Below, in pieces: positions 33,572 to 46,026 of a stretch of 64,000 bases of DNA. A program made the position numbers and the translations under genes. The stretch covers positions 334 to 64,333 of the forward strand of contig JBKCJE010000013.1 of NCBI GenBank assembly GCA_046301955.1, in the 5' to 3' direction. Origin of the DNA: Bacteroidota bacterium. Its GTDB lineage: Bacteria; Bacteroidota; Bacteroidia; NS11-12g; UBA955. Within the stretch, counting starts at the first letter, position 1; each line of letters opens with the position of its first letter. The notes under the pieces were generated by a model. The model was given only the letters and a program-made list of their open reading frames with translations. It was not told the origin of the DNA and did not search any database.

Positions 33572-36500
33572 TTAGGGTGATTTTGGACGCATCAATGTGA
33601 GAGAACTTCTCGCAAATCGTTTTGATTGCCTCAAGCTCTTGTATTCAAGGATAACAGCATATACGCCTTCGGGGCAATCTTGGTTGTTTTTGGTGCCATC
33701 CCAGAGGATTTTCTTGTCTTTCGATTCATACACAATTTCACCCCAGCGATTGAGAATCATCAGTCGATAATCGGAAGACCCATAAATGTCTGGTTGAAAC
33801 GCATCATTAATACCGTCGCCATTGGGTGTAAATGCGGTTGGGAGATACAAGATCACCGTATCATGGTAGCAGATGTTTTTGATTACAGTGTCAGCACACC
33901 CACCTTCGTTCTGAATCGCCAACATGACTTTGTAATTGGGTAGCAATCCATTATACTGATGGGTGGGGTTGATACTGGGTGAGAATGGAGTTTGTGTTTC
34001 ATCGCCCCAAAACCACTGTCCTTTAGTACCACCGCTGCTTTGATTAATGAACAGGGCAGTTTCGTCGAGCGGCGACAAACAATCACCTTGACTTTGTTTT
34101 TGAATGCTAAAACCCGCTTGAATGGCTTTGTATCCAGGGATTTCGATGGTGGTATCTGTCTGACAACCAGTAATTTCGTCTCGAATGGTCACCCGATATA
34201 GATTGTCGGCAAAGGCATGTAACGTATCTGCCATGTATCCAAGATCATGGGCCCAAGTGCGTTTCGCAGGGTTTCCATTTCCCAATTTCAGCAAAGCCCA
34301 ACCCTTTAACCCCCTACAAACGGTATCGCTCACAGTTGTTATTGACCAAACACGCGGATGAACATAAATGTTGGCGGTATCTTGAGCGTCGTCTGAACAT
34401 CCGTCACTCACTGTCCCAATCAATCTTCCGCCTTGATTGGCGATAAAAAAGGTTTTATTGCCTGTCTGACCATGAGACCATTTTAAGGAATAATTGGCGA
34501 TCAACCCCCCGTTCGCGATAGCATCGAACGTCAATATTTTACCGTAGCACGCACTATCGCTTTTGGGCGATAGAATTATTTTTAGTCTGGAATTAACATC
34601 CATTGACTGACTGTCATTGTTTGTGCAGGCACCTTGTTGAACTTGGTAAAAAATTCGATGTCGACCTTCGCCTGCAACGGCTGGATTGAACGTTGAATCC
34701 AAAATGCCATGACCAGACCAACTACCCTTGCTAGGGATTGCAGTCAAGGCAAATTGAGAATCTTTAAAGCAATACCATTGGGGATGGTTAAATACGATTT
34801 TTACCAAGGTATCTACACGAATCTTGGTTGAATTTAGACATCCTTCAGACGATTTATAATTGATCGTATGCAATCCTGCCCCAGCGGTGATTGTATTAAA
34901 AATACCGCTAGATTGTGTGATTCCAGGACCCCAAAACAATCCATTTTTATCTTTTTTAAACAAATTTAATTGTTTGACATTTAAACAAATAGATGTGTCT
35001 AATTGAATAATTGGTTTAGTTTTAACCCAAACAACAAGCGTATCATCACACCCTTTGTTAATATATCGAATAGTAAACACCCCGGGTCCGGATATCCTGG
35101 GATCGAATCCATTTTTCTTAACCGCTGCGTGCCCCATCCACTGTCCGCCTGGGATAGAAACACGTACACCTTTCGATACAAATGTTGTAAAGGTATCTTC
35201 CAAACAGAATTTCAAGGTGTCAGGCTGTAATACCTGTACTGGAAGTATATAAACAAACTTGCGATCACTACACTTTGGTGTTTTTAAGATCAGTGTATCA
35301 ATACTTGATTTTGAAGTGGCATTCCACCAATCCGGGCTATATTGATTACCGCTGCCATTGATCCCCTTGCTCGTCCATGTGTAACTTGAATTGGGCCTGA
35401 ATGGTTTTAGTGTTTGTTTACCAGCGGTTGGACAGAATGTATCATTCAATCCTGCATCGCCCGGCAAAACAGTGAGAACGGTTGTATCACGACAGCCCCC
35501 TTGGGCCGCATAAATGATGTTATAATTCTTTGGACCACCCATGAGCGACGGATTGTAGGTGCCATAGTAGTAATTCACCAGCCCCGCGAAGTAGTTAGGG
35601 TACAAACCCTTGGGAGAGAAGGTGAGGGTAGCAGACGTCACCGACTCACAAACTGTATCGTATTGGGGGACTTGAATGGGTTGAACAAAGACGGTTTTCT
35701 TTGATGTACATCCCTTCCAGGTATATGTCAGAATATAGGTCCCTGCGGTATCTGGGGTAAATAAACCATTGATTGTGGTTTTGGGACCAGTCCATGTTCC
35801 GCCTGCTGGCCCATACCAATATAGGGGGAATGAACTTTTACTTGGACAAAAAACGTTTTCGTAGTTGTAAGGGGCGGTTACAGTTACATTGACAGTATCC
35901 GCACAATTGCCGATTTGATACCAAACTTTTACAGTACCCCAAACACTGTTTGGTTTGAACTCACCGGTTTTGGCATTTACAATCCCACTGCCTTTCCATG
36001 TGCCGCCCACAGGTGTCGCACGAAGCTTAAAATTGGGATTGTAGTAACAAACCGACGTGTCTGATTGCGCTTTTGGAGGATCTAATACCACAATATCGAT
36101 TGTGTCATAACCGGGGACAGAAGACCCATCTTCTATCTTTATCGTGTACTTACGATTGGCATTTAAGCACTGCGTGATAGGGCCTTTTCCAGAAAGACCA
36201 GCGGGTGTCCATGTATATTTGTATTTTGTACTGTCACCGCCGGTTGCTGTTAATGTGAGCTTTACACAATCGCCTTTGCATATGGTATCTTTGTTGCTTT
36301 TAAGGTCAACGAGGATTGGGCAGTTGGAGATGGAGAAATTGTAGAGACTTTGTAAAAAATACACACTATCGCAGTAGTCGCGATAGCCATGCTGGTGGGT
36401 GATTTTATATAATCCGTTTAGTGTAAGTCCGCCAGTAACAGTCAATTCAAACAACTTTGACAGCCCATTACTACAGTTCAGTGCCTTGATTTTGGTAATT

Positions 36501-37081
36501 TTTGCCGCATTGGGCCCTGACATGGAGGTGTTATTCAAATTGACAGAATCACAAGGTATGGCAACATCTGTCGCCAATTTGATCGTAGAATCTTTACAGC
36601 TTGGAAGCGATATACCAACGCTGGCTTGTAGAAATTTAAATGGGGAAGGCTTGATTGTTTGAACTACAACGGATGCTTTCCAACCAGAACAAGTGATACT
36701 TTTGTCTGACTTGAAGTGAATTGTGATAAAACTGTCTGTTGAACTCACAGTTCCGGGGCCAATATTTCCGCTCCATGCCCCGAGTAAATTGGCAAAAGTA
36801 TCCTTTCCATCAAAAATCCGCATGACATCATTGTCTTTCTCCGTACAAAAGCTTGAAAACTTCAGGATGATGGATTTTGCACCGGGAATTGAAAGGGTAA
36901 GAGTCGTGTTTTCATTGTGGTCATAATCAGACTTATTTAGTGCTTTGTCTGAATCAGTGACAGTGCCTTTGCAAATTCGAAACCGACCATTTTGTTGGGT
37001 TATGGTAGTTTGGGATACAGCATCACTGCCGTAGCTTAACCACAATAATCCAATAATCCAAAATTTCCAGTTGTCTAACAA
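33572..37081 (-). CDS. Giant T9SS cargo: signal peptide, CUB-like domain, about 8 Cys-framed Ig-like repeats, T9SS type B C-terminal sorting domain
   Basis: CUB-like segment (TLTLSIPGAKSIILKFSSFCTEKDNDVMRIFDGKD...FITIHFKSDKSITCSGWKA). A repeated G(G/S)xW(x)G.G...G.F.P...G.G...I.Y...C motif is present. The C-terminus reads LPTAFTPNGDGINDAFQP...LMILNRWGEIVYES...EGVYAVILEY. The start is TTG, 5 nt after the upstream stop. Confidence 0.8.
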   Translation of the reverse strand: MLDNWKFWIIGLLWLSYGSDAVSQTTITQQNGRFRICKGTVTDSDKALNKSDYDHNENTTLTLSIPGAKSIILKFSSFCTEKDNDVMRIFDGKDTFANLLGAWSGNIGPGTVSSTDSFITIHFKSDKSITCSGWKASVVVQTIKPSPFKFLQASVGISLPSCKDSTIKLATDVAIPCDSVNLNNTSMSGPNAAKITKIKALNCSNGLSKLFELTVTGGLTLNGLYKITHQHGYRDYCDSVYFLQSLYNFSISNCPILVDLKSNKDTICKGDCVKLTLTATGGDSTKYKYTWTPAGLSGKGPITQCLNANRKYTIKIEDGSSVPGYDTIDIVVLDPPKAQSDTSVCYYNPNFKLRATPVGGTWKGSGIVNAKTGEFKPNSVWGTVKVWYQIGNCADTVNVTVTAPYNYENVFCPSKSSFPLYWYGPAGGTWTGPKTTINGLFTPDTAGTYILTYTWKGCTSKKTVFVQPIQVPQYDTVCESVTSATLTFSPKGLYPNYFAGLVNYYYGTYNPSLMGGPKNYNIIYAAQGGCRDTTVLTVLPGDAGLNDTFCPTAGKQTLKPFRPNSSYTWTSKGINGSGNQYSPDWWNATSKSSIDTLILKTPKCSDRKFVYILPVQVLQPDTLKFCLEDTFTTFVSKGVRVSIPGGQWMGHAAVKKNGFDPRISGPGVFTIRYINKGCDDTLVVWVKTKPIIQLDTSICLNVKQLNLFKKDKNGLFWGPGITQSSGIFNTITAGAGLHTINYKSSEGCLNSTKIRVDTLVKIVFNHPQWYCFKDSQFALTAIPSKGSWSGHGILDSTFNPAVAGEGRHRIFYQVQQGACTNNDSQSMDVNSRLKIILSPKSDSACYGKILTFDAIANGGLIANYSLKWSHGQTGNKTFFIANQGGRLIGTVSDGCSDDAQDTANIYVHPRVWSITTVSDTVCRGLKGWALLKLGNGNPAKRTWAHDLGYMADTLHAFADNLYRVTIRDEITGCQTDTTIEIPGYKAIQAGFSIQKQSQGDCLSPLDETALFINQSSGGTKGQWFWGDETQTPFSPSINPTHQYNGLLPNYKVMLAIQNEGGCADTVIKNICYHDTVILYLPTAFTPNGDGINDAFQPDIYGSSDYRLMILNRWGEIVYESKDKKILWDGTKNNQDCPEGVYAVILEYKSLRQSKRFARSSLTLMRPKSP

Positions 37082-37086
37082 TTTGC

Positions 37087-37527
37087 TTATTTGTTGATAT
37101 TGACTGATTTAGACGTCAAAGCGTTGCTCCAATGCTGCGCTCTGTCTTTTATCCGAACCTGAAATTGTGTACTTTCTGAGCTTCCTGCACCCAATAAGAA
37201 TATGTTCTTCAGGGTGATGCGAACACTGCCCGATATCGCCACTTTCGCTGTAAGGGGTGCCAATGGCTTCAAATGATAATAATCTGGTTTCCCAAAACGA
37301 ATGTCTTTCACCTCAACCGACAAAGAATCGGCGCTCTCAAAACCCAAATCACCGTCGCCATCGCTGTAATCGAAGGTGAGCACAACCGTATCTGTAAACT
37401 GCTTAAAATCAGATTTATTGAGTGTTAATTTGGAAATGCTTGGCTGCGGATCACCGGTATATCGGTCTTCATATTTACATGAAAAAAACAAAATAGAAAT
37501 TATCAATATATTGAAAATCAATTTCAT
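37087..37527 (-). CDS. Small lipoprotein with a DxDGDGD acidic loop
   Basis: Lipobox (ILFFSC) and beta-rich sequence with TFDYSDGDGDLGFE. It lies within the operon. Confidence 0.55.
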   Translation of the reverse strand: MKLIFNILIISILFFSCKYEDRYTGDPQPSISKLTLNKSDFKQFTDTVVLTFDYSDGDGDLGFESADSLSVEVKDIRFGKPDYYHLKPLAPLTAKVAISGSVRITLKNIFLLGAGSSESTQFQVRIKDRAQHWSNALTSKSVNINK

Positions 37528-37535
37528 AAAATACA

Positions 37536-38498
37536 CTACTTATACTTTATGGCGAAGTATGTCTTCAGTAGGAACATACTGTTGTTATTGGGTATTTGAT
37601 AATTGGTATTTTTCGCATCGCTAAGCGTAATTCTAAACCAAATCACATCATTTTCAATGTGTTTGCTGCCGTCGTAGAGGAAATTCCAATAGTAATCGCA
37701 ACTGCTTGCAAAAAGACCAGACAAATTCTTATTCGGGCCACCTGTCATACTCATCTCCTTGGCTGGATCAAAGTTAGCCGGATCCGAAGACCAATTGACA
37801 GTTACATTTTTTAAACCGCTGACTACAGTATTGTCATCGCTCAACGATACCCAAAGTGTAGGAGATTGTCCAACTGAAATTTGCGCCGCTTCATACTTAC
37901 CTGCCCGAAAAAGCGGAACTCCACCAACCAAGAATTGAACACCCAGCACTTGCGGTGGAAAATCTACGGTTTCTGGAGTTTTACCAAGCCAATCCTTGGC
38001 TCCAGCATTTATCCAGTCGTTCAAACGAACCATCCAAGAGTCTTTTTGAACAGGGTAGTTGCTATTGGGCTCCAACGAAAGCGGCATAATTCCCGAATTT
38101 CCGTTTAAATCAATTAACAGTCTTTGGGGCAGCATGCTACTGGTTGAGGAAAAAGGCACCACGCGATTTTTGAACTTACCTGCAAAATCAGGCTTTGTTA
38201 CAGAATGATTCACCAACGAGTAATAACTACTTTCAACGGTTCTAAAATCTGGCTCAAAGTTCCCATCATGGCACCCACTGTTGGCGCAAGTGGGTTTGAA
38301 AAGCCCTGCATGTAATCCTTGAATTGTGCGATAATTCCACGTATCCTTGGTCGTTTGGATGGTATCGCTAGCTTTTTTGAAAGGGTTTTTAATTACAGGC
38401 CCATCCGATTCACATCCCACAGCGAACAAAGCCACAACAACAACAATCGAATTGTATAAGTTGATTTTCTTGCCGCTGATCGATGGACGTTTATTCAT
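37536..38498 (-). CDS. Lipoprotein with a PSCyt1-like (Planctomycete cytochrome-c-like) domain carrying CX4CH
   Basis: Lipobox (LFAVGC). The domain reads LFKPTCANSGCHDG ... GIMPLSLEPNS...LNDWINAGAKD, the same layout as the PSCyt1 consensus (C..CH ... MP ... WI..GA). A C-terminal beta-rich domain follows. Confidence 0.55.
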   Translation of the reverse strand: MNKRPSISGKKINLYNSIVVVVALFAVGCESDGPVIKNPFKKASDTIQTTKDTWNYRTIQGLHAGLFKPTCANSGCHDGNFEPDFRTVESSYYSLVNHSVTKPDFAGKFKNRVVPFSSTSSMLPQRLLIDLNGNSGIMPLSLEPNSNYPVQKDSWMVRLNDWINAGAKDWLGKTPETVDFPPQVLGVQFLVGGVPLFRAGKYEAAQISVGQSPTLWVSLSDDNTVVSGLKNVTVNWSSDPANFDPAKEMSMTGGPNKNLSGLFASSCDYYWNFLYDGSKHIENDVIWFRITLSDAKNTNYQIPNNNSMFLLKTYFAIKYK

Positions 38499-38500
38499 GG

Positions 38501-39841
38501 TTATATTCTTTGGTATAGGCTTCGTGCTAACGGGTCAATCAAGCCACTATTGTTCACATCGTCGAGGATACCGAAAACATCCGCTATTGTCGGCACAATG
38601 TCTGTGAGTCTGCCCACAGGTTGTGCTTCGCCACCAACACGAATGTTTGGAACACTCTTACCCATCATTAAACCCCAAACACGAAGTGCATTGGCATCGC
38701 TGTGGTCGTAGGCTACCCAGTCGTTCTGATCCAAAATGGGATTCGGATTTTCATTCCTTCCACATTCAGGCGCTACGATAAAAATGGTATTGCCCGACAT
38801 TTCAGGAATGTTGTTTTGAATATGCTGCCACAACCAACCTGTAATGTGGTCCGCTCTGTGTAACATCTGTAAATAACCGGTAAAATTGGAATGACAAGAA
38901 TCTACTCCTGAGATATTGACCGCAAGCATTTTGGGTTTGAATTCCCGCAAGACTTCCGCGGCATACATGATATTCACAGCGTCTCCTGTATCCGTTACTG
39001 GGGGCATCGCTAACTGCCCAGCCTGTTGTTTAGCAAAAACACTTTTGATAAAGTCCTTGATTTGGGTTTTCTCTTCGTCTGTGTTACTTACACTGCTTAT
39101 TTGATCTTTGGTCAGTGCGAAACTTTGGTCCAAGAAGTTCTTCATGAAGTACATGGGTTCCAAATCTGTGCGTGTATAGGTCTTCGCATTACCTAATACC
39201 TCTTTGCCTGCTGATGAGAAAGTAACAGGTGCTGCGAACATATTACCCCCATACGACAATCCATAATCTTTGTGAGTGCTTGAGTTTAACAATGGGGTAG
39301 AATTGCCAATCCCGTTACCAATAAACCATGTATCCGTGGCTTTAAATCCCGCGTGTTTCCTGAGATATTCAAAGATAGTTGGGTAGGCAGGTCGAACCTT
39401 TAAACCCTGGTTGGTTCCCGGATTTCCTGTGAGTAACGTATTCAAACCGACGTAGTGTCCTGCGCTTTGTGCACGCATTTCGGGAAATAACAGACCCGAT
39501 TTTTCCATCGATTGAGTCAATAACTTGGGAATAGGCTCGGAGCCGTTGGGTTTTCCTGCGACACTGGTGCCATAGGCGATTTTCTTGTTGGGCGCGTTGC
39601 CTTCAAACAGGTTGGGCATGATGTTTCCAGCCGCACCCGTAACACCTTGACTATCCTCTAGGTATCGCCCTAAAACACTCTCCTGCTGTCGAACCCCACC
39701 TGCAAACATCACTAAAACAACGTGATCGGCCTTCACTGAGCCTGTTTTTGCGAATAGCCTACCTGACGGAAGAATATAGGGTGCTAATAAGCCTCCACCT
39801 AGGGCGATGCCTGATTTTGTGATAAAATTCTTTCTATTCAT
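38501..39841 (-). CDS. DUF1501-type protein (alkaline phosphatase/sulfatase superfamily fold) with a Tat-like signal
   Basis: N-terminus MNRKNFITKSGIALGGGLLAP (RK variant of the twin-arginine motif). Further matches are HVVLVMFAGGVRQQES; ISGVDSCHSNF; and IFIVAPECGRNENPN...YDHSD, which parallels the DUF1501 signature blocks (GG.s; WDTH; EFGRTP..N..GRDH). Confidence 0.6.
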   Translation of the reverse strand: MNRKNFITKSGIALGGGLLAPYILPSGRLFAKTGSVKADHVVLVMFAGGVRQQESVLGRYLEDSQGVTGAAGNIMPNLFEGNAPNKKIAYGTSVAGKPNGSEPIPKLLTQSMEKSGLLFPEMRAQSAGHYVGLNTLLTGNPGTNQGLKVRPAYPTIFEYLRKHAGFKATDTWFIGNGIGNSTPLLNSSTHKDYGLSYGGNMFAAPVTFSSAGKEVLGNAKTYTRTDLEPMYFMKNFLDQSFALTKDQISSVSNTDEEKTQIKDFIKSVFAKQQAGQLAMPPVTDTGDAVNIMYAAEVLREFKPKMLAVNISGVDSCHSNFTGYLQMLHRADHITGWLWQHIQNNIPEMSGNTIFIVAPECGRNENPNPILDQNDWVAYDHSDANALRVWGLMMGKSVPNIRVGGEAQPVGRLTDIVPTIADVFGILDDVNNSGLIDPLARSLYQRI

Positions 39842-39853
39842 TTCGCCTCTGTC

Positions 39854-40354
39854 TTAATAATATTGATACTCTTCACTACATGCAAAAGCGGTGTAAACCA
39901 TTTCTACTGTTACTGCTTTGTTATTGGTTATGTATTGCTTAAAAAATGCTTTTTCACCCTCACTCGGGTATCGCAAATAGAATCGCTTGAAAGTACTAAT
40001 GATAAATGCATCAATATCCATGCGCATCACCGCATCTTTTGGAATGGTAATGCCTGAAGTGTTGAAGTAATTGCTCAACAACATCTCGTTGGCAACATCC
40101 TGGTCGCCGATGGAGTAGAGTACGTTCTGGGTTTTATATAACTGATTGGGGGAAATAGCCGTTTGGTATAAATTTGTGTAGAGGATCGAAATGAACTCGG
40201 CGTCATTTTTCTTTTTGGTCTTACGACTCTTATCCTCCAACACATTGACTTGATCAACCTCGTAACCAATAATTCGCTCCTTTGTGCATGCTGAAGTGCA
40301 CAATAACAATCCATAAATAAACCAAGGACGCAATTTAAAACTGGGCATATTCAT
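39854..40354 (-). CDS. Lipoprotein with two DUF1549/DUF4214-like helical motifs
   Basis: Lipobox (LCTSAC). Motifs are FISILYTNLYQTAISPNQ and FIISTFKRFYLRYPSEGEKAFF, and the protein ends in FACSEEYQYY. It overlaps the upstream gene by 20 nt (14 nt if the ATG at 40348 is used). Confidence 0.5.
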   Translation of the reverse strand: MNMPSFKLRPWFIYGLLLCTSACTKERIIGYEVDQVNVLEDKSRKTKKKNDAEFISILYTNLYQTAISPNQLYKTQNVLYSIGDQDVANEMLLSNYFNTSGITIPKDAVMRMDIDAFIISTFKRFYLRYPSEGEKAFFKQYITNNKAVTVEMVYTAFACSEEYQYY

Positions 40355-41261
40355 CTCCTATGATTACATTTTTAATGACTTGTTCAATTTGATGACTCTG
40401 ATAGAATGCATGAAATAGGTTACTCACCTCGGCAGTTGTGGCTTCACGCTGAAGCAAGACATAGTAAAACCAGCGAATTTGAGCTTCGTGAAACGCATCG
40501 GAATTCACAACGGCATCGCAATATTCATTTTTATTCGCTGCCCATCGAGAAAATATGGCTGCGGGTGCATTTTTTTCAATAATCGTATAGGAGCGATCAA
40601 ATTCGTCTTTTGTTGGATTACGGAGTAAGCAATTATCGAAAACAGCATTGATGTAGTTAAAACTATTCATATTAATACCGTCGTAAATAGAATTGTTCAT
40701 CATTACAGCGCAAATGTTGCGGTAGTCTTTGATGCGCTTGCGAAATACATATCGGCTGTTCAAGACATCAAAGTATTTGGTCTTTGCATCGGTGTAACGA
40801 TACACCCCTATAGAATCGCCATTGAGTCGGGCAACCGTAATGCCGAAATTCAAATTACCAATAAACTGTGCAATGCTGGGATCAGACGCACCTTCCAAAA
40901 AACGGGCTTTGGAAATATCATATATTCTCTGTGCAAAGGCATGTCGGTAAGAAGAATCTCCTGAACGATATGTGGTATCAAACATCAACATACTCACCAA
41001 TCGCTGTCGACAAGAATCATGCAATTCAGCCAATTTTAATTGATTTGTAAAAGAAATACGCTCGGTTTCGGTGGCTTCTCTACCCAAAAGGTCGATAAAC
41101 ATTCGCTGCACATAATTCTCAACCCTAAGGGTAGAAACTCCCTTGTAGTTCGGGGGTTGGTTGTTTTTTACCGCGATATTTTCTGTTTCCGTGCACCCAG
41201 CCAAAAACAGGTGGAACACGCCCAAATACAGAAGCCGCTTCGTGAGTTTGAAAATGTCCAT
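40335..41261 (-). CDS. Lipoprotein with three DUF1549/DUF4214-like helical motifs
   Basis: Lipobox (LFLAGC). Motifs are YVQRMFIDLLGREATETE, YINAVFDNCLLRNPTKDE and IRWFYYVLLQREATTAE. It is the first gene of the operon. Confidence 0.5.
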   Translation of the reverse strand: MDIFKLTKRLLYLGVFHLFLAGCTETENIAVKNNQPPNYKGVSTLRVENYVQRMFIDLLGREATETERISFTNQLKLAELHDSCRQRLVSMLMFDTTYRSGDSSYRHAFAQRIYDISKARFLEGASDPSIAQFIGNLNFGITVARLNGDSIGVYRYTDAKTKYFDVLNSRYVFRKRIKDYRNICAVMMNNSIYDGINMNSFNYINAVFDNCLLRNPTKDEFDRSYTIIEKNAPAAIFSRWAANKNEYCDAVVNSDAFHEAQIRWFYYVLLQREATTAEVSNLFHAFYQSHQIEQVIKNVIIGDEYAQF

Positions 41262-41265
41262 ATCT

Positions 41266-41273
41266 CAAATGTA
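41266..41273 (-). promoter_or_regulatory. -7 box (TACATTTG on the minus strand) 4 nt upstream of the first ATG of the lipoprotein/DUF1501 operon
   Basis: Exact TAnnTTTG with leaderless spacing. Confidence 0.5.
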
Positions 41274-41366: not shown

Positions 41367-42524
41367 ATGGCATTTTATCATAGGTCTGGATCCGTTCCCG
41401 CAAAACGACATACACAATTTCGCAAACCTGATGGAACCTTATACTCAGAGGAGTTAGTGAGCACCGAAGGGTTTAGCAGCTTATACTCTTTAATATACCA
41501 TTGTCACCCACCCACATTGGTAAAGAATATCGAGGAACCATACAGTGTAGAGCCCAAAATTGCCAAGGAGAAGAACATGCAGCATCGCAGTTTTTTAACT
41601 TTCAAAACCAAGCCAGAATCGGATTACATCAAGAGCCGCAAGACCCTGTTAATGAACAGTGATGTGATGATGGGCTCTGCTGCGCCGACGCAAGGATTTT
41701 CAGATTATTTCTACAAGAATTCAGACGCCGATGAAGTCTTGTTCATCCATGAAGGCTCAGGGGTGTTGAAAACCATTTACGGCAATATCCCCTTTGAATA
41801 CGGTGATTATCTGGTTATCCCAAGAGGCACAATATATCAATTGCATTTTAACGATAAAGACAATCGGATCTTCTTTGTAGAAAGTCCTACACCCATTCAT
41901 CCGCCCAAGCGTTATCAAAATTCGGTAGGACAGTTAATGGAGCATTCCCCTTATTGCGAACGTGACATAAAGTTGCCCGAAAACTTGGAAACCCATGATG
42001 AGATAGGGGAGTTCAAAGTACTAATTAAAAAACAAGGTTTAATATATCCATATACCTACGCCACACACCCCTTTGATGCTATTGGTTGGGATGGTTATTT
42101 GTATCCATATGGATTTAGTATTCACAACTTCGAGCCGATTACTGGACGATTGCATATGCCGCCTCCGATTCACCAAACCTTTGAAGGACGGAATTTTGTG
42201 ATTTGTAGCTTTGTTCCTCGAATGTACGACTACCATCCACTGAGCGTTCCTGCGCCTTACAATCATTCAAACATCGATTCAGATGAGATTTTGTATTATG
42301 TTGATGGCGACTTTATGAGCCGCAAACACGTTGAGCGGGGTATGATTAGTTTGCATCCCAAAGGGATTCCGCACGGTCCACACCCGGGTACTGTTGAAAA
42401 AAGTTTGGGTAAATTGGAAACCAAAGAGCTCGCAGTTATGATCGACCCATTCTATCCTTTGATGATTACCACCGACGCGATGGAAATGGAAGATCCTGGC
42501 TATTGGAAATCTTGGGTAGAATGA
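41367..42524 (+). CDS. hmgA: Homogentisate 1,2-dioxygenase (short bacterial type)
   Basis: N-terminus MAFYHRSGSVPAKRHTQFRKPDGTLYSEELVSTEGFS and a cupin core with His ligands (HNFEP, ISLHPKGIPHGPHPG). Confidence 0.8.
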   Translation: MAFYHRSGSVPAKRHTQFRKPDGTLYSEELVSTEGFSSLYSLIYHCHPPTLVKNIEEPYSVEPKIAKEKNMQHRSFLTFKTKPESDYIKSRKTLLMNSDVMMGSAAPTQGFSDYFYKNSDADEVLFIHEGSGVLKTIYGNIPFEYGDYLVIPRGTIYQLHFNDKDNRIFFVESPTPIHPPKRYQNSVGQLMEHSPYCERDIKLPENLETHDEIGEFKVLIKKQGLIYPYTYATHPFDAIGWDGYLYPYGFSIHNFEPITGRLHMPPPIHQTFEGRNFVICSFVPRMYDYHPLSVPAPYNHSNIDSDEILYYVDGDFMSRKHVERGMISLHPKGIPHGPHPGTVEKSLGKLETKELAVMIDPFYPLMITTDAMEMEDPGYWKSWVE

Positions 42525-42540: not shown

Positions 42541-45500
42541 ATGGCCAGAATTCTCCTCCTAAGCATTGTTTTCTTTTTTCTTTCTCCATTACACGCACAA
42601 TTCAGGCAGCCGCCGTATCACCGATTGGTGAAAAAAACAGAACGTCGTTTGGAACGCGTTGATAAGCGCATAGAATCGGCTAACCGACAGCAATACACAG
42701 TAAAATCGCCGTTGAGAAAATCCGCAGAAACCATTCGTGTGGAAAATCTCTTGAGCATGCCACAAACACCCGATCGCTATTGGCAGCAAGAATGGTTGGC
42801 CACAATGAATCCTGCATTGGGGCGCCCTACACCAGAATTGCTTTTCGCGGAGATGTTGCAGCAGCAAAGTGTTTCTCTTGATCGCAGGGCGATGCCTGGA
42901 ACCACAAAAACAAGTTGGACATCTCGAGGACCTAATAATTTGGCAGGGAGAACACGAGCACTTGCCGTTGATCCAACGGTGACGTCAGGCAAAAAAGTAT
43001 GGGCTGGCGCCGTAACAGGCGGTTTATGGTATAATAACGATATAACCAGTTCGAGCAGTCAATGGAATTTCGTATCTAGCCTTTGGAGTAACCTTACTGT
43101 AACTTGTATTGCTTTTGATCCCAATACACCAGGCACCATGTATGTTGGTACAGGAGAGGGTTGGGGGTCTACTTCATCAAGCAGTCGGGGATTTGGTGTA
43201 TTCAAGAGCATTGATTCTGGAAAAACATTCACCCAATTGGCTGCGACCAAGTCTTATTTTTTTATCAATGATATCGTAGTGCGCTCTGAGTCAGGCAAAA
43301 GCGTGGTTTATTGTGCAACAGACATGCAATATGTAAACGGTGCTTGGCATGGAACAACCACAGGTGGATTAATGAAAAGTACCAACGGCGGAATTTCATT
43401 TACCAACGTTATGCCGAAGATTCCTGGGTATACCTTGTCGATGATACCTGCTGATTTAGAAATTGGAGCCGACAACCGCTTATGGGTTGGTTCGCGTCGA
43501 AATTATGCCCAAACTGCCACGGATAAAGGAGGCGGTCGGGTACTGTATACCGATGATGGTGTGAATTTCACCACTGTGTACTCACATGCTGATAAAGCGG
43601 GCAGGGTAGAGCTTGCTTGTGCGCCGACTTCGGCAAATACGGTATATGCTGTTTTTGAATCCAATGGAAAAGTAGATACCCTATTGCGAACCTTTAATAA
43701 AGGCACCACGTGGTCGGCCATGAAAAAACCCAAAGACGCTGATGCGGGTATTCCGGCAACAGATCCATCGCGTGGTCAGGCATGGTATGATTTGATTTTG
43801 GCTGTATCACCCAAGGATTCATCGGATGTGCTTTTTGGGGCTATTGATGTCTTTCTTTCTGAAAATTCCGGTGGTTCATTCATTCAAGTGGGAAAATGGA
43901 GTGATAATTCTGGGCTTGCCAACCTTTCTTGCTCCTATGTTCATGCCGATCAACACAATATTGTTTTCGTACCCGGCACCAATGCTTGTTTGATTGGGAA
44001 TGATGGGGGTGTATATTATTGTCCTGATATCTTGGACAACCTTTCGTATCAATCCGTAATCTATGAACGCAACAATGGATATATCGTTACGCAGTTTTAT
44101 TGGGGCGATATCAGTCAAACAAAGTCCAAGAATTTGATGCTTGCAGGTGCCCAAGACAATGGTTCGCACCAGTTAAACACATCGGGATTGGTCAATAAGA
44201 ATATGGTTTCTGGGGGCGATGGAGGTTATTGCTTCATCAGTCAAACGAACGACAACAAACAGGTGGTTAGCTACGTTTATAATCAGTTTTTTGCAACGTC
44301 TGACAACTGGGCCAATGCAGCGAAGATTATCGACGACGCGACCACTGGAAAGTTCATTAATCCAGCAGCATGGGACGATGTGAATGGCGCTTTGATAACA
44401 GGAAAAGGGAAATGCACTCTGTATCGCAACAAATTGGGTACATCTGCTACATTGGCGAATACCGTAACGGTTAGCTCAACCACAGCAAATGGAGCACCCA
44501 GCGTGATTACGAGTAGTGTTAGTAGCACGGGAAAAGGACAACTGTATGTGGGAACCGATGTAGGAAAGGTATTTGTAACCACTGACATTGGTGCCTCGAC
44601 ACCGGTTTGGTCCAATATTACGGGTACCATTAATGCTGGTAATATCAGCGATATATTCAGGTTAAGAAAATCCGATACTTTGTTTGTGACATTGAGTAAC
44701 TACGGTGCAAGTGTGAATATCTACATGAGTACAGATGCAGGCAAAACGTGGAAATCCAGGGATGGAAACATTGCCGATATGCCCATTTGGGGAATATTGC
44801 TAAACCCGAGAAAGCTTGGGGAGGCCATTATTGCCACAGAATTGGGGATTTATGGCACTTCGGATGTGTTTGCTGCATCCGTTGTTTGGGCACCCTACAA
44901 CGATGGAATGGGGGCGGTTAAAGTTGCGAATTTAAGATATCGCGATGCCGACCAAACCATCATGGCCACAACGCATGGGAGAGGGGTATTCACCTCAGAC
45001 GCTTGGTCTAAAGCCAGCCCGATCGTAAAATTCGGCGTAAGCAAAGACACTGTGTGTTCCCAAGAAACGCTCACTTTCAAGGATTCTACATTGAATTCAC
45101 CCACTGCATGGAGCTGGAGTTTTTCACCACGGTCCGGAATCGTTTACCGCAATGGCACAGATTCTACAAAACAAAACCCAGTGGTTCAATTTACACGAGG
45201 TGGAACATATTCAGTGACCTTAACTGCGTCCAATGCAATTGGAGAAGATCAATTATCAAAAATCAATCGCATTTTTGTGATAGACTCAATACCATTAACA
45301 ATTTCAATCCAAACGAATCCGGCTGTAGTTTGTGTGAATGATACATTTTCATTGACTTCAACGGTTAATACCAATGGTAAAACCATCGTTGCAGCATATT
45401 CATGGAAGAAAAACGGAACAACCCTGGCGAATACAAATGCCCATTTGCACGGATTAACACCGAACACTGCCGATAAGTACCAATTGTTTGTACAATCCAC

Positions 45501-46026
45501 CACAAGCTGTGTGACGCCGAATCCAGCACAAAGTGCAATAGTTTCGCCAAATACAAAAGGCATCAAAACGATTACTGTCAGTTGCAACATGGATACTTTA
45601 AAAGCAATGCCATTGGGATCAGGTACCTACAATTGGTTTAAAAATGGCGTCAAAGTGGGTACTGGACAGAAGTACAAACCCAGTGAAACAGGACTTTATC
45701 GTTGTGTATATGATGATAATGGCTGCAAAAGCGACAGCAGTGCGATTATTATATTGAAGTCAATCGGTGCCAGGGATTTAGCTGTAGAGGCGGTTAGTGT
45801 ATACCCAAATCCAGCCAAGGGACAATTTTCGATTCAAGGCATATTGGAATTGGGAGAAATTCGGATTTTCAATGCTGTGGGACAGTTAATGAAAGGTATT
45901 ATTGTTGCCAATGGCCAATCAACGCTGGATGTTGATATTCAGGGATGGGTTGCCGGATTGTATTATGTTGAGTGTTACGATGTTTCTGGATCACAGATTG
46001 ACAAACAGATTCTCGTCGTTGAGTAA
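42541..46026 (+). CDS. Large secreted BNR/Asp-box (sortilin/Vps10-like) repeat protein with PKD domain and T9SS type A C-terminal sorting domain
   Basis: Signal peptide, then multiple SxDxGxTW/F boxes (SIDSGKTF, STNGGISF, TFNKGTTW, SENSGGSF, STDAGKTW). A PKD-like segment (FSPRSG...NPVVQFTRGGTYSVTLTASNAIGED) is present. The C-terminus reads VSVYPNPAKGQFSIQG...GLYYVE. Confidence 0.8.
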   Translation: MARILLLSIVFFFLSPLHAQFRQPPYHRLVKKTERRLERVDKRIESANRQQYTVKSPLRKSAETIRVENLLSMPQTPDRYWQQEWLATMNPALGRPTPELLFAEMLQQQSVSLDRRAMPGTTKTSWTSRGPNNLAGRTRALAVDPTVTSGKKVWAGAVTGGLWYNNDITSSSSQWNFVSSLWSNLTVTCIAFDPNTPGTMYVGTGEGWGSTSSSSRGFGVFKSIDSGKTFTQLAATKSYFFINDIVVRSESGKSVVYCATDMQYVNGAWHGTTTGGLMKSTNGGISFTNVMPKIPGYTLSMIPADLEIGADNRLWVGSRRNYAQTATDKGGGRVLYTDDGVNFTTVYSHADKAGRVELACAPTSANTVYAVFESNGKVDTLLRTFNKGTTWSAMKKPKDADAGIPATDPSRGQAWYDLILAVSPKDSSDVLFGAIDVFLSENSGGSFIQVGKWSDNSGLANLSCSYVHADQHNIVFVPGTNACLIGNDGGVYYCPDILDNLSYQSVIYERNNGYIVTQFYWGDISQTKSKNLMLAGAQDNGSHQLNTSGLVNKNMVSGGDGGYCFISQTNDNKQVVSYVYNQFFATSDNWANAAKIIDDATTGKFINPAAWDDVNGALITGKGKCTLYRNKLGTSATLANTVTVSSTTANGAPSVITSSVSSTGKGQLYVGTDVGKVFVTTDIGASTPVWSNITGTINAGNISDIFRLRKSDTLFVTLSNYGASVNIYMSTDAGKTWKSRDGNIADMPIWGILLNPRKLGEAIIATELGIYGTSDVFAASVVWAPYNDGMGAVKVANLRYRDADQTIMATTHGRGVFTSDAWSKASPIVKFGVSKDTVCSQETLTFKDSTLNSPTAWSWSFSPRSGIVYRNGTDSTKQNPVVQFTRGGTYSVTLTASNAIGEDQLSKINRIFVIDSIPLTISIQTNPAVVCVNDTFSLTSTVNTNGKTIVAAYSWKKNGTTLANTNAHLHGLTPNTADKYQLFVQSTTSCVTPNPAQSAIVSPNTKGIKTITVSCNMDTLKAMPLGSGTYNWFKNGVKVGTGQKYKPSETGLYRCVYDDNGCKSDSSAIIILKSIGARDLAVEAVSVYPNPAKGQFSIQGILELGEIRIFNAVGQLMKGIIVANGQSTLDVDIQGWVAGLYYVECYDVSGSQIDKQILVVE

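Follow-up and report, generated by a model that had tools for sequence, protein, structure and literature searches.

The six genes g1 to g6, which lie on the minus strand at positions 33572-41273 of a 64,000-nucleotide (nt) stretch of DNA from a Bacteroidota bacterium (assembly GCA_046301955.1, contig JBKCJE010000013.1; the whole stretch is called the window below), form a real, conserved unit that is probably co-transcribed. Four of the genes encode lipoproteins (g1, g2, g4 and g5), g3 encodes a protein of alkaline-phosphatase/sulfatase fold, and g6 encodes a large protein with a sorting domain of the type IX secretion system (T9SS). We think it probable that the cluster is one conserved, co-transcribed envelope module, and that its g1-g4 core is a taken-apart homologue of a DUF1501 protein and its cytochrome-like/helical partner, which are found as a pair in Planctomycetota. 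A first-pass annotation of the window had described these genes as a split version of that pair. The architecture that it drew is essentially right, its family labels do not hold at the Pfam level, and its interpretation as a whole is partly supported.

Conservation of the six-gene cluster

Of the species-representative genomes searched with a profile of g3 homologues, at least 519 contain relatives, and the comparison was made on the best 80 loci. Synteny was tested by searching these loci, all from other species, with the six window proteins using tblastn. Homologues of g1 to g6 occur in the same order and on the same strand in all 80 loci, as far as each contig extends, and this synteny holds from 95% down to 55% identity in g3. 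Such an arrangement is far beyond chance. The most conserved member is g3 (55-95% identity across species), and the other genes show 30-45% identity at the same distance. The open reading frame (ORF) coordinates in the window agree with the first-pass annotation in strand, gene boundaries and junctions (-20, +12, +2, +8 and +5 nt, in the order g1 to g6); across the loci the median junctions are -20, 9, -1, -1 and 26 nt, and most measure 30 nt or less. The start of g5 leaves some latitude, with 146 amino acids (aa) from its ATG or 149 aa from an alternative GTG at 37536.

The genes around the cluster vary and are not conserved beyond close relatives, and clustering of the flanking ORFs across loci revealed no extra conserved partner gene beyond that range. 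In the window the flanks are made up of housekeeping genes (Map, a metallo-beta-lactamase-fold protein, NFACT, GyrA, UvrA and an M16 peptidase); the NFACT gene, which lies downstream of g6, is lost from this position beyond close relatives.

A promoter-like box of the Bacteroidota -7 type (TAnnTTTG) precedes g1. The first-pass annotation had placed it correctly, 4 nt before the ATG, but had called it single: the motif occurs 39 times in the window, where chance would give 59.8, and the operon itself contains four more copies on the minus strand, so the motif alone is not rare. It is the position upstream of g1 that is meaningful, because the 120 nt before g1 contain the box in 41 of 70 orthologous loci, compared with 5.8% of random 120-nt windows. 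Scans for sigma-70 and terminator consensus sequences gave background levels only. Together, the shared order and strand, the tight junctions, the varying flanks and the enriched upstream box indicate a conserved and probably co-transcribed unit. The cluster is present in at least 80 uncultured Bacteroidota species, and probably in several hundred.

The first two genes overlap by 20 nt (40335-40354), where the DNA codes in two frames for the g1 end (...DEYAQF, then the stop codon) and the g2 start (MNMPSFK). An overlap in the same relative frame recurs in 67 of 72 loci, with the five commonest lengths between 14 and 26 nt. The overlap more likely reflects translational coupling, given that g2 is equipped with a signal peptide and lipobox of its own. 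The g1 stop reads UUU-UAA-A in about half of the loci, where a +1 slip into g2 is conceivable in principle. We considered a programmed +1 frameshift that would fuse g1 and g2 at this site and rejected it, as the sequence is kept in only about half of the loci and g2 carries its own signal peptide and an invariant lipobox Cys.

The g3 protein belongs to the alkaline-phosphatase superfamily

All 1748 homologues of g3 are annotated as hypothetical proteins and have no precomputed Pfam domain. Scans against Pfam and NCBIfam gave no match for g3, which falls below every Pfam hydrolase threshold, and a few members of its family show weak matches to Sulfatase or Phosphodiest (Sulfatase in 2 of 31 members, E 0.059). 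An AlphaFold2 (AF2) model of g3, with a predicted local distance difference test (pLDDT) score of 80.5, was matched by Foldseek to alkaline-phosphatase-superfamily structures with a probability of 1.0 and E-values down to 1.5e-9. These structures include 3lxq, many S1 sulfatases, LtaS and PhoA, with TM-scores of 0.35-0.47 and identities of 9-15%. Searches of the PDB with the g3 sequence alone and with a profile of its close family produced nothing useful, and a cross-phylum profile built from Bacteroidota and Planctomycetota sequences recovered sulfatases (1.3e-8), LtaS and ENPP4, with alignments that cover the C-terminal half only.

About 34 invariant positions of g3 are common to the Planctomycetota sequences, and they cluster in D-x-x-H, PE-x-GR and DH-x-D motifs. 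For the segment with this candidate metal/catalytic cluster, the aligned region in sulfatases, LtaS and ENPP4 is their catalytic C-terminal half, with PE(C/F)GR of g3 opposite GDHGR of the sulfatases in the PDB profile alignment. Also invariant across the two phyla are G48-G49-x-R51, P154-T155-x-F157-E158, T418 and the pair G128-H129. In a weakly scoring N-terminal stretch (3.4 bits), His129 stands opposite the Cys of CSTAR, a sulfatase motif, and the AF2 model places it at the start of a helix that comes after a strand. There is no C/S-x-P-x-R or Ser/Thr nucleophile motif in g3, and FAGGVR (GG) takes the place of the metal-binding DD at the end of the first strand. Without the canonical nucleophile and DD motifs, g3 does not qualify by its sequence as an ordinary sulfatase or phosphatase.

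The protein begins with MNRKNF, which resembles a twin-arginine translocation (Tat) signal. Within the first 12 residues RR is found in 53 of 80 orthologues and KR or RK in 26 of 80, and R3 and F6 are invariant. An exhaustive search with the g3 profile returned 829 clusters, among them P0241-P0263, which are divergent but full-length. Two of the distant relatives, P0277 (which matches the g3 profile at E 3.6e-39) and P0292, narrowly reach DUF1501 with 28.6 and 28.0 bits (cut-off 27) and also touch Phosphodiest and Sulfatase. The P0277 family belongs to Planctomycetota, has RRxFLK signals (some with a Pfam TAT_signal match), is annotated as DUF1501, Sulfatase or TAT_signal, and aligns with g3 from end to end at 27-30% identity. 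We conclude that g3 is a Tat-type member of the alkaline-phosphatase superfamily, adjacent to DUF1501, and that it is probably exported by the Tat pathway. The first-pass annotation had called g3 a DUF1501-type protein with a Tat-like signal. The fold and the signal stand and the DUF1501 label does not (no Pfam or NCBIfam match), and profile searches did not assign g3 to an ordinary characterised sulfatase or phosphatase.

Three stretches of the 997-aa protein P0351 are also matched by the g3 profile, most strongly residues 448-537 by profile positions 278-368 (E 7e-21). This protein has cytochrome c7/c3-like matches near its C-terminus and, judged by these matches, may be a natural fusion of the enzyme segment with haem motifs.

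Planctomycetota relatives carry a fused partner protein

We examined the gene contexts of eight P0277-family members (loci L081-L091). A four-gene cluster recurs in these contexts, composed of a partner gene, the alkaline-phosphatase-fold gene, a gene for a multihaem cytochrome (~970 aa, LVIVD repeats), and a gene for an EF-hand protein. All loci read contain the enzyme, multihaem/LVIVD and EF-hand genes. In seven loci (L081-L086 and L089), the partner gene, in five distinct versions, is directly upstream of the g3 homologue; a sixth version is found in L088, about 2.9 kb upstream with three genes between, and no partner protein was found upstream in L090 and L091. The four-gene unit appears conserved, and we found no description of it in the literature. 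The protein of about 970 aa has eight to ten CXXCH motifs in addition to LVIVD, and its gene is the next one after the DUF1501-like gene in all of these loci but L090, in which a small ORF separates the two.

Partner proteins are 597-894 aa long, with a shortest version of 342 aa (L082) that is without the haem-type and PKD domains. Their parts follow one order: an N-terminal domain with CX4CH or CXXCH, then PKD, then a helical region in which IRxLFVDLLGRxPxxxEF motifs occur; the C-terminal end is S-x-EYQ-x-Y in all versions. The N-domain motif reads CA(T/I)(S/A)GCH or canonical CAGCH, and the candidate distal ligand is His, compared with Met in g4. In Pfam the partners match DUF4214 above threshold and PSCyt2/DUF1549 at no more than 25.4 bits (cut-off 29.8); matches to PSD1 and DUF1800 are faint, and those to DUF1800 sit on the C-terminal halves.

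Three of the Bacteroidota proteins were aligned with these partners using hhalign. The g2 profile matches the last 125 residues of the partner with a probability of 98.5% (E 1.6e-15; 96% against a single sequence). The g4 N-domain matches the partner N-domain at 75.5% (E 2.4e-5) over 117 collinear columns, which include the Cys motif, a vPG..eS.L segment and a WI.GA helix. The match of g1 to the partner region just before the g2-like part is weak (42%). From these alignments, one Planctomycete partner protein corresponds to g4, g1 and g2, which are split around the enzyme gene in the window, in a fusion/fission (Rosetta-stone) relation. These Planctomycete relatives are not the canonical Pfam-defined pair but a sister lineage that borders on DUF1501. 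The idea of a split holds when the window proteins are compared with the partner of the P0277 family.

The g4 protein is a candidate haem lipoprotein

The 796 homologues of g4 are likewise all hypothetical and without a precomputed Pfam domain. Its N-terminal domain had been described as having the PSCyt1 layout; that label finds no Pfam match, and what remains is an N-domain with CX4CH like that of the Planctomycete partner. Canonical CXXCH is absent from g4, and two Planctomycete homologues have CAGCH at the aligned position. W162-I163 is invariant together with the Cys motif and the Met-Pro pair listed in Table 1. In the AF2 model (pLDDT 82), residues ~55-175 form a four-helix N-domain with a class-I-like order, and residues 183-320 form an immunoglobulin (Ig)-like beta-sandwich.

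Foldseek with the whole g4 model gave only weak matches to Ig-like beta-sandwiches, a search in which the whole chain does not probe the cytochrome fold, and a full-length g4 profile matched only a signal peptide in the PDB. With a profile of the g4 domain from both phyla, PccH (4rlr), a monohaem cytochrome, was the best PDB match at E 0.013. The second was hydrazine synthase alpha (5c2v, E 0.28), matched over its haem domain, and both alignments are in register at the g4 Cys motif. No relation between g4 and the Planctomycete multihaem/LVIVD proteins was detected with hhalign. From sequence and model we infer that g4 is a monohaem c-type-cytochrome-like lipoprotein, an assignment that is consistent but marginal.

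The g1 and g2 proteins resemble DUF4214 and phycobilisome linkers

The first-pass annotation had read three copies of a helical motif in g1 and two in g2, written as (F/Y)x3(F/Y)x2LLxR-x-(A/P)-T-x2-E. The copies are present but the motif is looser than written: copy 1 of g1 has the form Y-x4-F-x2-LL-x-R-x-A-T-x2-E, and in g2 the first copy is degenerate. Pfam gathering thresholds are 23.2 bits for DUF4214 (PF13946), 28.7 bits for PBS_linker_poly (PF00427), 29.8 bits for PF07583 and 28.5 bits for PF07587. In the g1 family (n = 29), 21 members match DUF4214 and 13 match PBS_linker_poly (best E 8.4e-9; one at 30.1 bits), with sub-threshold matches to PSCyt2 in nine (best E 0.0063) and to PSD1 in four (best E 0.0034). 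In the g2 family (n = 29), 18 members match DUF4214 and two match PSD1. The best DUF4214 E-value among g1 and g2 orthologues is 6.2e-7; the window proteins score 15.6 (g1) and 15.8 bits (g2), E ~0.015, which is below threshold.

A likeness of g1 and g2 to DUF1549 and DUF1553 had also been proposed. It is confined to sub-threshold matches over a short motif (positions ~19-70 of 209 and 217-243 of 244), and the same motif is common to DUF4214 and the phycobilisome-linker domain, which score better. No protein of g1-g4 reaches the Pfam thresholds for DUF1501, PSCyt1, DUF1549 or DUF1553. Profiles of g1 and g2 matched only phycobilisome linkers in the PDB, and these weakly. On these profile matches, g1 and g2 are best described as DUF4214/phycobilisome-linker-like. 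We also considered that they might be simple duplicates of each other and rejected this, as hhalign aligns a single 32-column motif at 61%.

The lipobox Cys residues of g1, g2, g4 and g5 named in the first-pass annotation are all present in the translations, as are CSEEYQYY at the g2 end, DYSDGDGDLG in g5 and MNRKNF in g3. The lipobox Cys is invariant in all four family alignments (in g1, Cys23 in 29 homologues), and (S/A/G)-C is found across 69-78 orthologues per family. After this Cys, all four lipoprotein families mostly have Lys-Lys and then Glu or Asp. The sequence K-(D/E)2 has been described as a surface-export signal of Flavobacteriia lipoproteins, and the N-termini of g1, g2, g4 and g5 resemble it. 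If this export signal is real, some of the four lipoproteins could face outward and would not be periplasmic.

The g5 and g6 proteins are candidates for a surface arm

All members of the g5 family share an invariant loop, Y-x-D-G-D-G-D-L-G. No Pfam family was found in 29 members, and no relatives were detectable outside the family itself. Comparisons of g5 with EF-hand proteins, of g5 with g4 and g6, and of g4 with g6 by hhalign yielded nothing beyond signal peptides.

The prediction that g6 combines CUB, Ig/PKD repeats and a T9SS type B domain was borne out, and g6 is the only cluster member with direct Pfam or NCBIfam matches above threshold. Its CUB domain scores 40.6 bits (threshold 21.4), and the sorting domain scores 61.9 bits with CHU_C (PF13585; cut-off 27) and 45.8 bits with TIGR04131 (cut-off 35). 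Among 21 orthologues, all have CUB and CHU_C, 11 have PKD_4 and four have SprB. Regular Cys pairs at residues 345-1062 point to about ten Ig/PKD/SprB-like repeats. T9SS type B cargo usually has an adjacent gene for a PorP/SprF-like outer-membrane partner. No such gene lies beside g6, whose neighbours are the NFACT-family gene and g5.

Features and neighbouring genes

Positions of the genes, motifs and domains are collected in Table 1. Two further genes upstream of the cluster are included there. The homogentisate-1,2-dioxygenase-like gene is divergent from the promoter region of the cluster; it lies directly upstream in 25 close loci and is absent from that place in distant ones. The Sortilin/BNR-like protein is encoded two genes upstream, with a gene at the same position in 15 close loci and not in distant ones. 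Several of the carrier loci (L007, L011, L016, L017 and L027) are labelled as Bifidobacterium, Chryseobacterium gleum, Rhizobium, Chitinophaga pinensis or Sphingomonadales. Such names appear to be errors of database assignment or binning and not true hosts. The lake series from Mendota, Římov and Zürich are among the sources of the carrier assemblies.

Table 1. Positions of cluster genes, their motifs and domains, neighbouring genes, and multihaem genes of the Planctomycetota loci. Coordinates refer to the window unless a locus is named.
Feature	Position	Strand	Description
g1	40335-41261	-	308 aa lipoprotein, lipobox LAGC, Cys23; three DUF4214/phycobilisome-linker-like helical motif units
g2	39854-40354	-	166 aa lipoprotein, Cys23, end CSEEYQYY
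g3	38501-39841	-	446 aa, alkaline-phosphatase/sulfatase fold, unnamed family
g4	37536-38498	-	320 aa lipoprotein, Cys29; cytochrome-c-like N-domain and Ig-like beta-sandwich
g5	37087-37527	-	146 aa lipoprotein, Cys17, acidic loop
g6	33572-37081	-	1169 aa, TTG start; signal peptide, CUB, repeats, T9SS type B domain
Promoter-like box TACATTTG	41266-41273	-	Bacteroidota-type -7; 4 nt upstream of g1 ATG
g3 Tat-like motif	39818-39838	-	Residues 2-8 NRKNFIT (RK for RR), start MNRKNF
g3 His129	39455-39457	-	Invariant Gly-His; at sulfatase formylglycine nucleophile position, weak alignment
g3 candidate metal/catalytic cluster	38696-38902	-	D314-x-x-H317, D331, P358-E359-x-G361-R362, D379-H380-x-D382; invariant in both phyla
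g4 haem-c-type motif (CX4CH)	38268-38288	-	C71-A-N-S-G-C76-H77; invariant in 27 homologues
g4 Met138-Pro139	38082-38087	-	Candidate distal ligand; invariant in 27 homologues
g6 CUB (PF00431)	36671-36973	-	Residues 37-137; Pfam 3.5e-10
g6 T9SS type B domain	33626-33844	-	Residues 1080-1152; CHU_C 6.5e-17, TIGR04131 4.9e-12
Lipoprotein N-termini (g1, g2, g4, g5)	41193-41261, 40286-40354, 38412-38498, 37477-37527	-	Lipobox Cys, then mostly Lys-Lys and Glu/Asp
Homogentisate-1,2-dioxygenase-like gene	41367-42524	+	HgmA_N, 4.8e-08
Sortilin/BNR-like protein gene	42541-46026	+	1161 aa; Sortilin/BNR-like region, PKD, T9SS type A domain (Por_Secre_tail)
Multihaem/LVIVD gene, L081	8223-11210		~970 aa; EF-hand-repeat gene after it
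Multihaem/LVIVD gene, L083	8146-11124		~970 aa; EF-hand-repeat gene after it
Multihaem/LVIVD gene, L086	5195-8128		~970 aa; EF-hand-repeat gene after it
Multihaem/LVIVD gene, L088	8237-11134		~970 aa; EF-hand-repeat gene after it
Multihaem/LVIVD gene, L089	8183-11047		~970 aa; EF-hand-repeat gene after it
Multihaem/LVIVD gene, L090	1850-4768		~970 aa; EF-hand-repeat gene after it
Multihaem/LVIVD gene, L091	8166-11168		~970 aa; EF-hand-repeat gene after it

Comparison with known systems

The module of DUF1501 with PSCyt1, PSCyt2 and PSD1 is centred on the Planctomycetes-Verrucomicrobia-Chlamydiae (PVC) bacteria and its function is unknown (Kamneva et al. 2012, PMC3542564), in agreement with the first-pass annotation. 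That annotation had also held that the partner always pairs with DUF1501, which is overstated: some DUF1501 genes are without PSCyt/PSD partners, and a few Bacteroidetes carry DUF1501 (PMC3542564). The same domains have been noted in freshwater Verrucomicrobia (He et al. 2017, PMC5615132), and an operon of DUF1800 and DUF1501 is found in Proteobacteria (PMC5122149). In a literature coverage that is incomplete, we found no paper on the six-gene Bacteroidota cluster or the split arrangement, and none that names both DUF1501 and DUF1553.

In its canonical form (Planctomycetota, Verrucomicrobiota and Lentisphaerota), the DUF1501 module resembles the cluster in that an alkaline-phosphatase-fold protein with a Tat signal is encoded beside a cytochrome-like/helical partner, with optional Ig/PKD domains and a helical LLGRxPTxxE ... 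SxEY motif. In the window, however, the partner takes the form of three lipoproteins, with g1 and g2 upstream and g4 downstream of the enzyme gene; the haem motif is of the CX4CH form, the cluster additionally encodes a small lipoprotein and a T9SS surface protein, and the host is a member of the Bacteroidota. The cluster is present in one copy per locus, whereas many paralogues are described in PVC genomes. Canonical DUF1501/DUF1549 motifs (EFGRTP, GRDHW and RRxxLDxxGxxPT) were not found by regular expression in the fetched loci and the window. Among demonstrable relatives, those of the Planctomycetota four-gene cluster stand closest to g3, g2 and the g4 N-domain. The helical partner is upstream in both; in the Planctomycetota it is fused, and multihaem/LVIVD and EF-hand genes follow downstream instead of g4-g6. 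The operon of DUF1800 and DUF1501 likewise sets a helical protein beside a DUF1501 protein with a Tat signal, but it has no cytochrome-like domain or T9SS component, and g1 and g2 have no DUF1800 match.

Individual members of the cluster also have likenesses elsewhere. Sulfatases and alkaline phosphatases share the fold of g3, and the alignment of their C-terminal half includes the Y...D..vG helix and the strand with a metal-binding acidic residue. Unlike S1 sulfatases, LtaS, NPP and PhoA, g3 has His129 for the nucleophile, no DD and an extra invariant DH-x-D. The repeated helical unit of g1 and g2 is the same as in DUF4214 and phycobilisome linkers, but g1 and g2 are lipoproteins, come from a phylum that is not photosynthetic and are linked with an enzyme gene. 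The g6 protein is like the SprB-type type B cargo of Flavobacteria in its sorting domain, tandem repeats and predicted cell-surface location. It differs from SprB in its N-terminal CUB, its much shorter length and its lack of an adjacent PorP/SprF-like gene.

Discussion

The observations can be joined in a model of an envelope module. According to this model, g3 would be a metal-dependent enzyme that folds in the cytoplasm, probably acquires its cofactor there and is exported by Tat. In the periplasm it would work with the lipoproteins g1 and g2 as helical scaffolds and with g4, which would carry a monohaem-like domain on an Ig-like stalk, and these proteins may form a physical complex in the envelope. 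The g5 and g6 proteins would make up a Bacteroidota-specific surface arm, presumably one that binds an external substrate or surface, linked to the periplasmic core. Because g3 has His at the nucleophile position, is missing DD and CxPxR, and has a constant haem-type partner, redox-assisted or otherwise non-canonical chemistry would be more likely than simple ester hydrolysis, and the additional multihaem cytochrome of the Planctomycete clusters counts toward a redox reading. A bolder version holds that the g3/DUF1501 branch consists not of hydrolases but of Tat-exported metalloenzymes with a His at the nucleophile position, which exchange electrons with a dedicated c-type haem domain. We regard this version as unlikely.

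Several points weigh against the envelope module related to the Planctomycetota pair. DUF1501 (PF07394, gathering threshold 27 bits) has no match at E <= 1 in g3 or 31 family members, and PSCyt1 (PF07635) has none at E <= 1 in g4, its 27 homologues or the Planctomycete partners. The PDB matches of g4 to cytochromes are marginal, and CX4CH is an unusual motif for the haem that g4 is predicted to bind. Placing His129 at the nucleophile position depends on the 3.4-bit stretch and the secondary structure of the model. The matches to the Planctomycete partner are moderate for g4 and weak for g1, and g5 and g6, which have no counterpart in the Planctomycete clusters, are tied to g1-g4 by synteny alone. 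Finally, all 80 carrier loci are from metagenome-assembled Bacteroidota, and the survey covers the 80 closest of at least 519 loci.

The absence of g5 and g6 from the Planctomycete clusters raises the question of whether two unrelated units lie side by side in Bacteroidota, a periplasmic g1-g4 module and a surface adhesin pair g5-g6, with only a promoter in common. The Planctomycete clusters, which contain a g3 homologue and mostly a partner with multihaem/LVIVD and EF-hand genes instead of g5 and g6, would fit such a division, as would the g5-g6 gap, which is the loosest junction (median 26 nt, with 59% at 30 nt or less). However, g5 and g6 follow g4 in every long-enough locus, over the whole range of g3 identity, while the other neighbours change. 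The median g4/g5 junction is -1 nt, and no terminator-like minus-strand site was found at the g4/g5 or g5/g6 junction. We consider it doubtful that these are two unrelated units. In another alternative, g3 would be a divergent sulfatase or phosphoesterase for nutrient scavenging, the lipoproteins would bind substrate, and the Cys motif of g4 would be structural (a disulfide or metal site) with no role in redox chemistry. Bacteroidota usually capture substrates at the surface and hydrolyse them in the periplasm, the only solved relatives of the g3 fold are hydrolases (sulfatases, LtaS, NPP and alkaline phosphatase), and a few family members have the weak Sulfatase or Phosphodiest matches noted above. 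Yet g3 has an invariant Gly-His where CxPxR or a Ser/Thr nucleophile would be expected, has GG for the metal-binding DD, and lies below all Pfam hydrolase thresholds. Neither the ten scanned flanking genes nor the recurring flank ORFs include SusC/SusD or other genes for polysaccharide utilisation or transport. Moreover, the partner domain alternates between CX4CH and CXXCH with the following His, as haem sites do, and cytochromes come first in the PDB search. A conventional scavenging esterase is rather improbable.

The cluster could also be purely structural, an envelope or surface scaffold such as an accessory of gliding or adhesion, in which g3 would be a catalytically dead binding module. 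The resemblance of g6 to SprB-type T9SS type B surface proteins, that of g1 and g2 to the purely architectural phycobilisome linkers, and the loss of the canonical catalytic residues of the fold from g3 all agree with a scaffold. Against this, g3 is by far the most conserved protein of the cluster (55-95% identity, compared with 30-45%), its ~34 cross-phylum invariant positions fall into motif clusters in a pattern typical of an active site, and the Tat-type signal suggests a cofactor. We think a purely structural cluster very improbable.

An envelope module with a g1-g4 core related to the Planctomycetota pair has consequences beyond the window. The pair of DUF1501 and PSCyt/DUF1549/DUF1553 is among the most expanded modules of Planctomycetes and Verrucomicrobia and has had no known function since its description in 2012 (PMC3542564). 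Relatives of this module form a single-copy, strictly conserved operon in Bacteroidota, in which the large partner is separable into components (haem, helical and enzyme) of a size that allows each to be expressed and modelled alone. Five widespread families (g1-g5) without a Pfam or NCBIfam model are flagged by the cluster, and the fusion/fission relation provides independent genomic evidence that the parts work together. If the electron-exchanging version of the g3/DUF1501 branch were true, it would represent new redox chemistry on the alkaline-phosphatase fold, common to Planctomycetota and Bacteroidota, and the Bacteroidota would have separated the haem, scaffold and enzyme parts into small proteins that are wired to a surface receptor.

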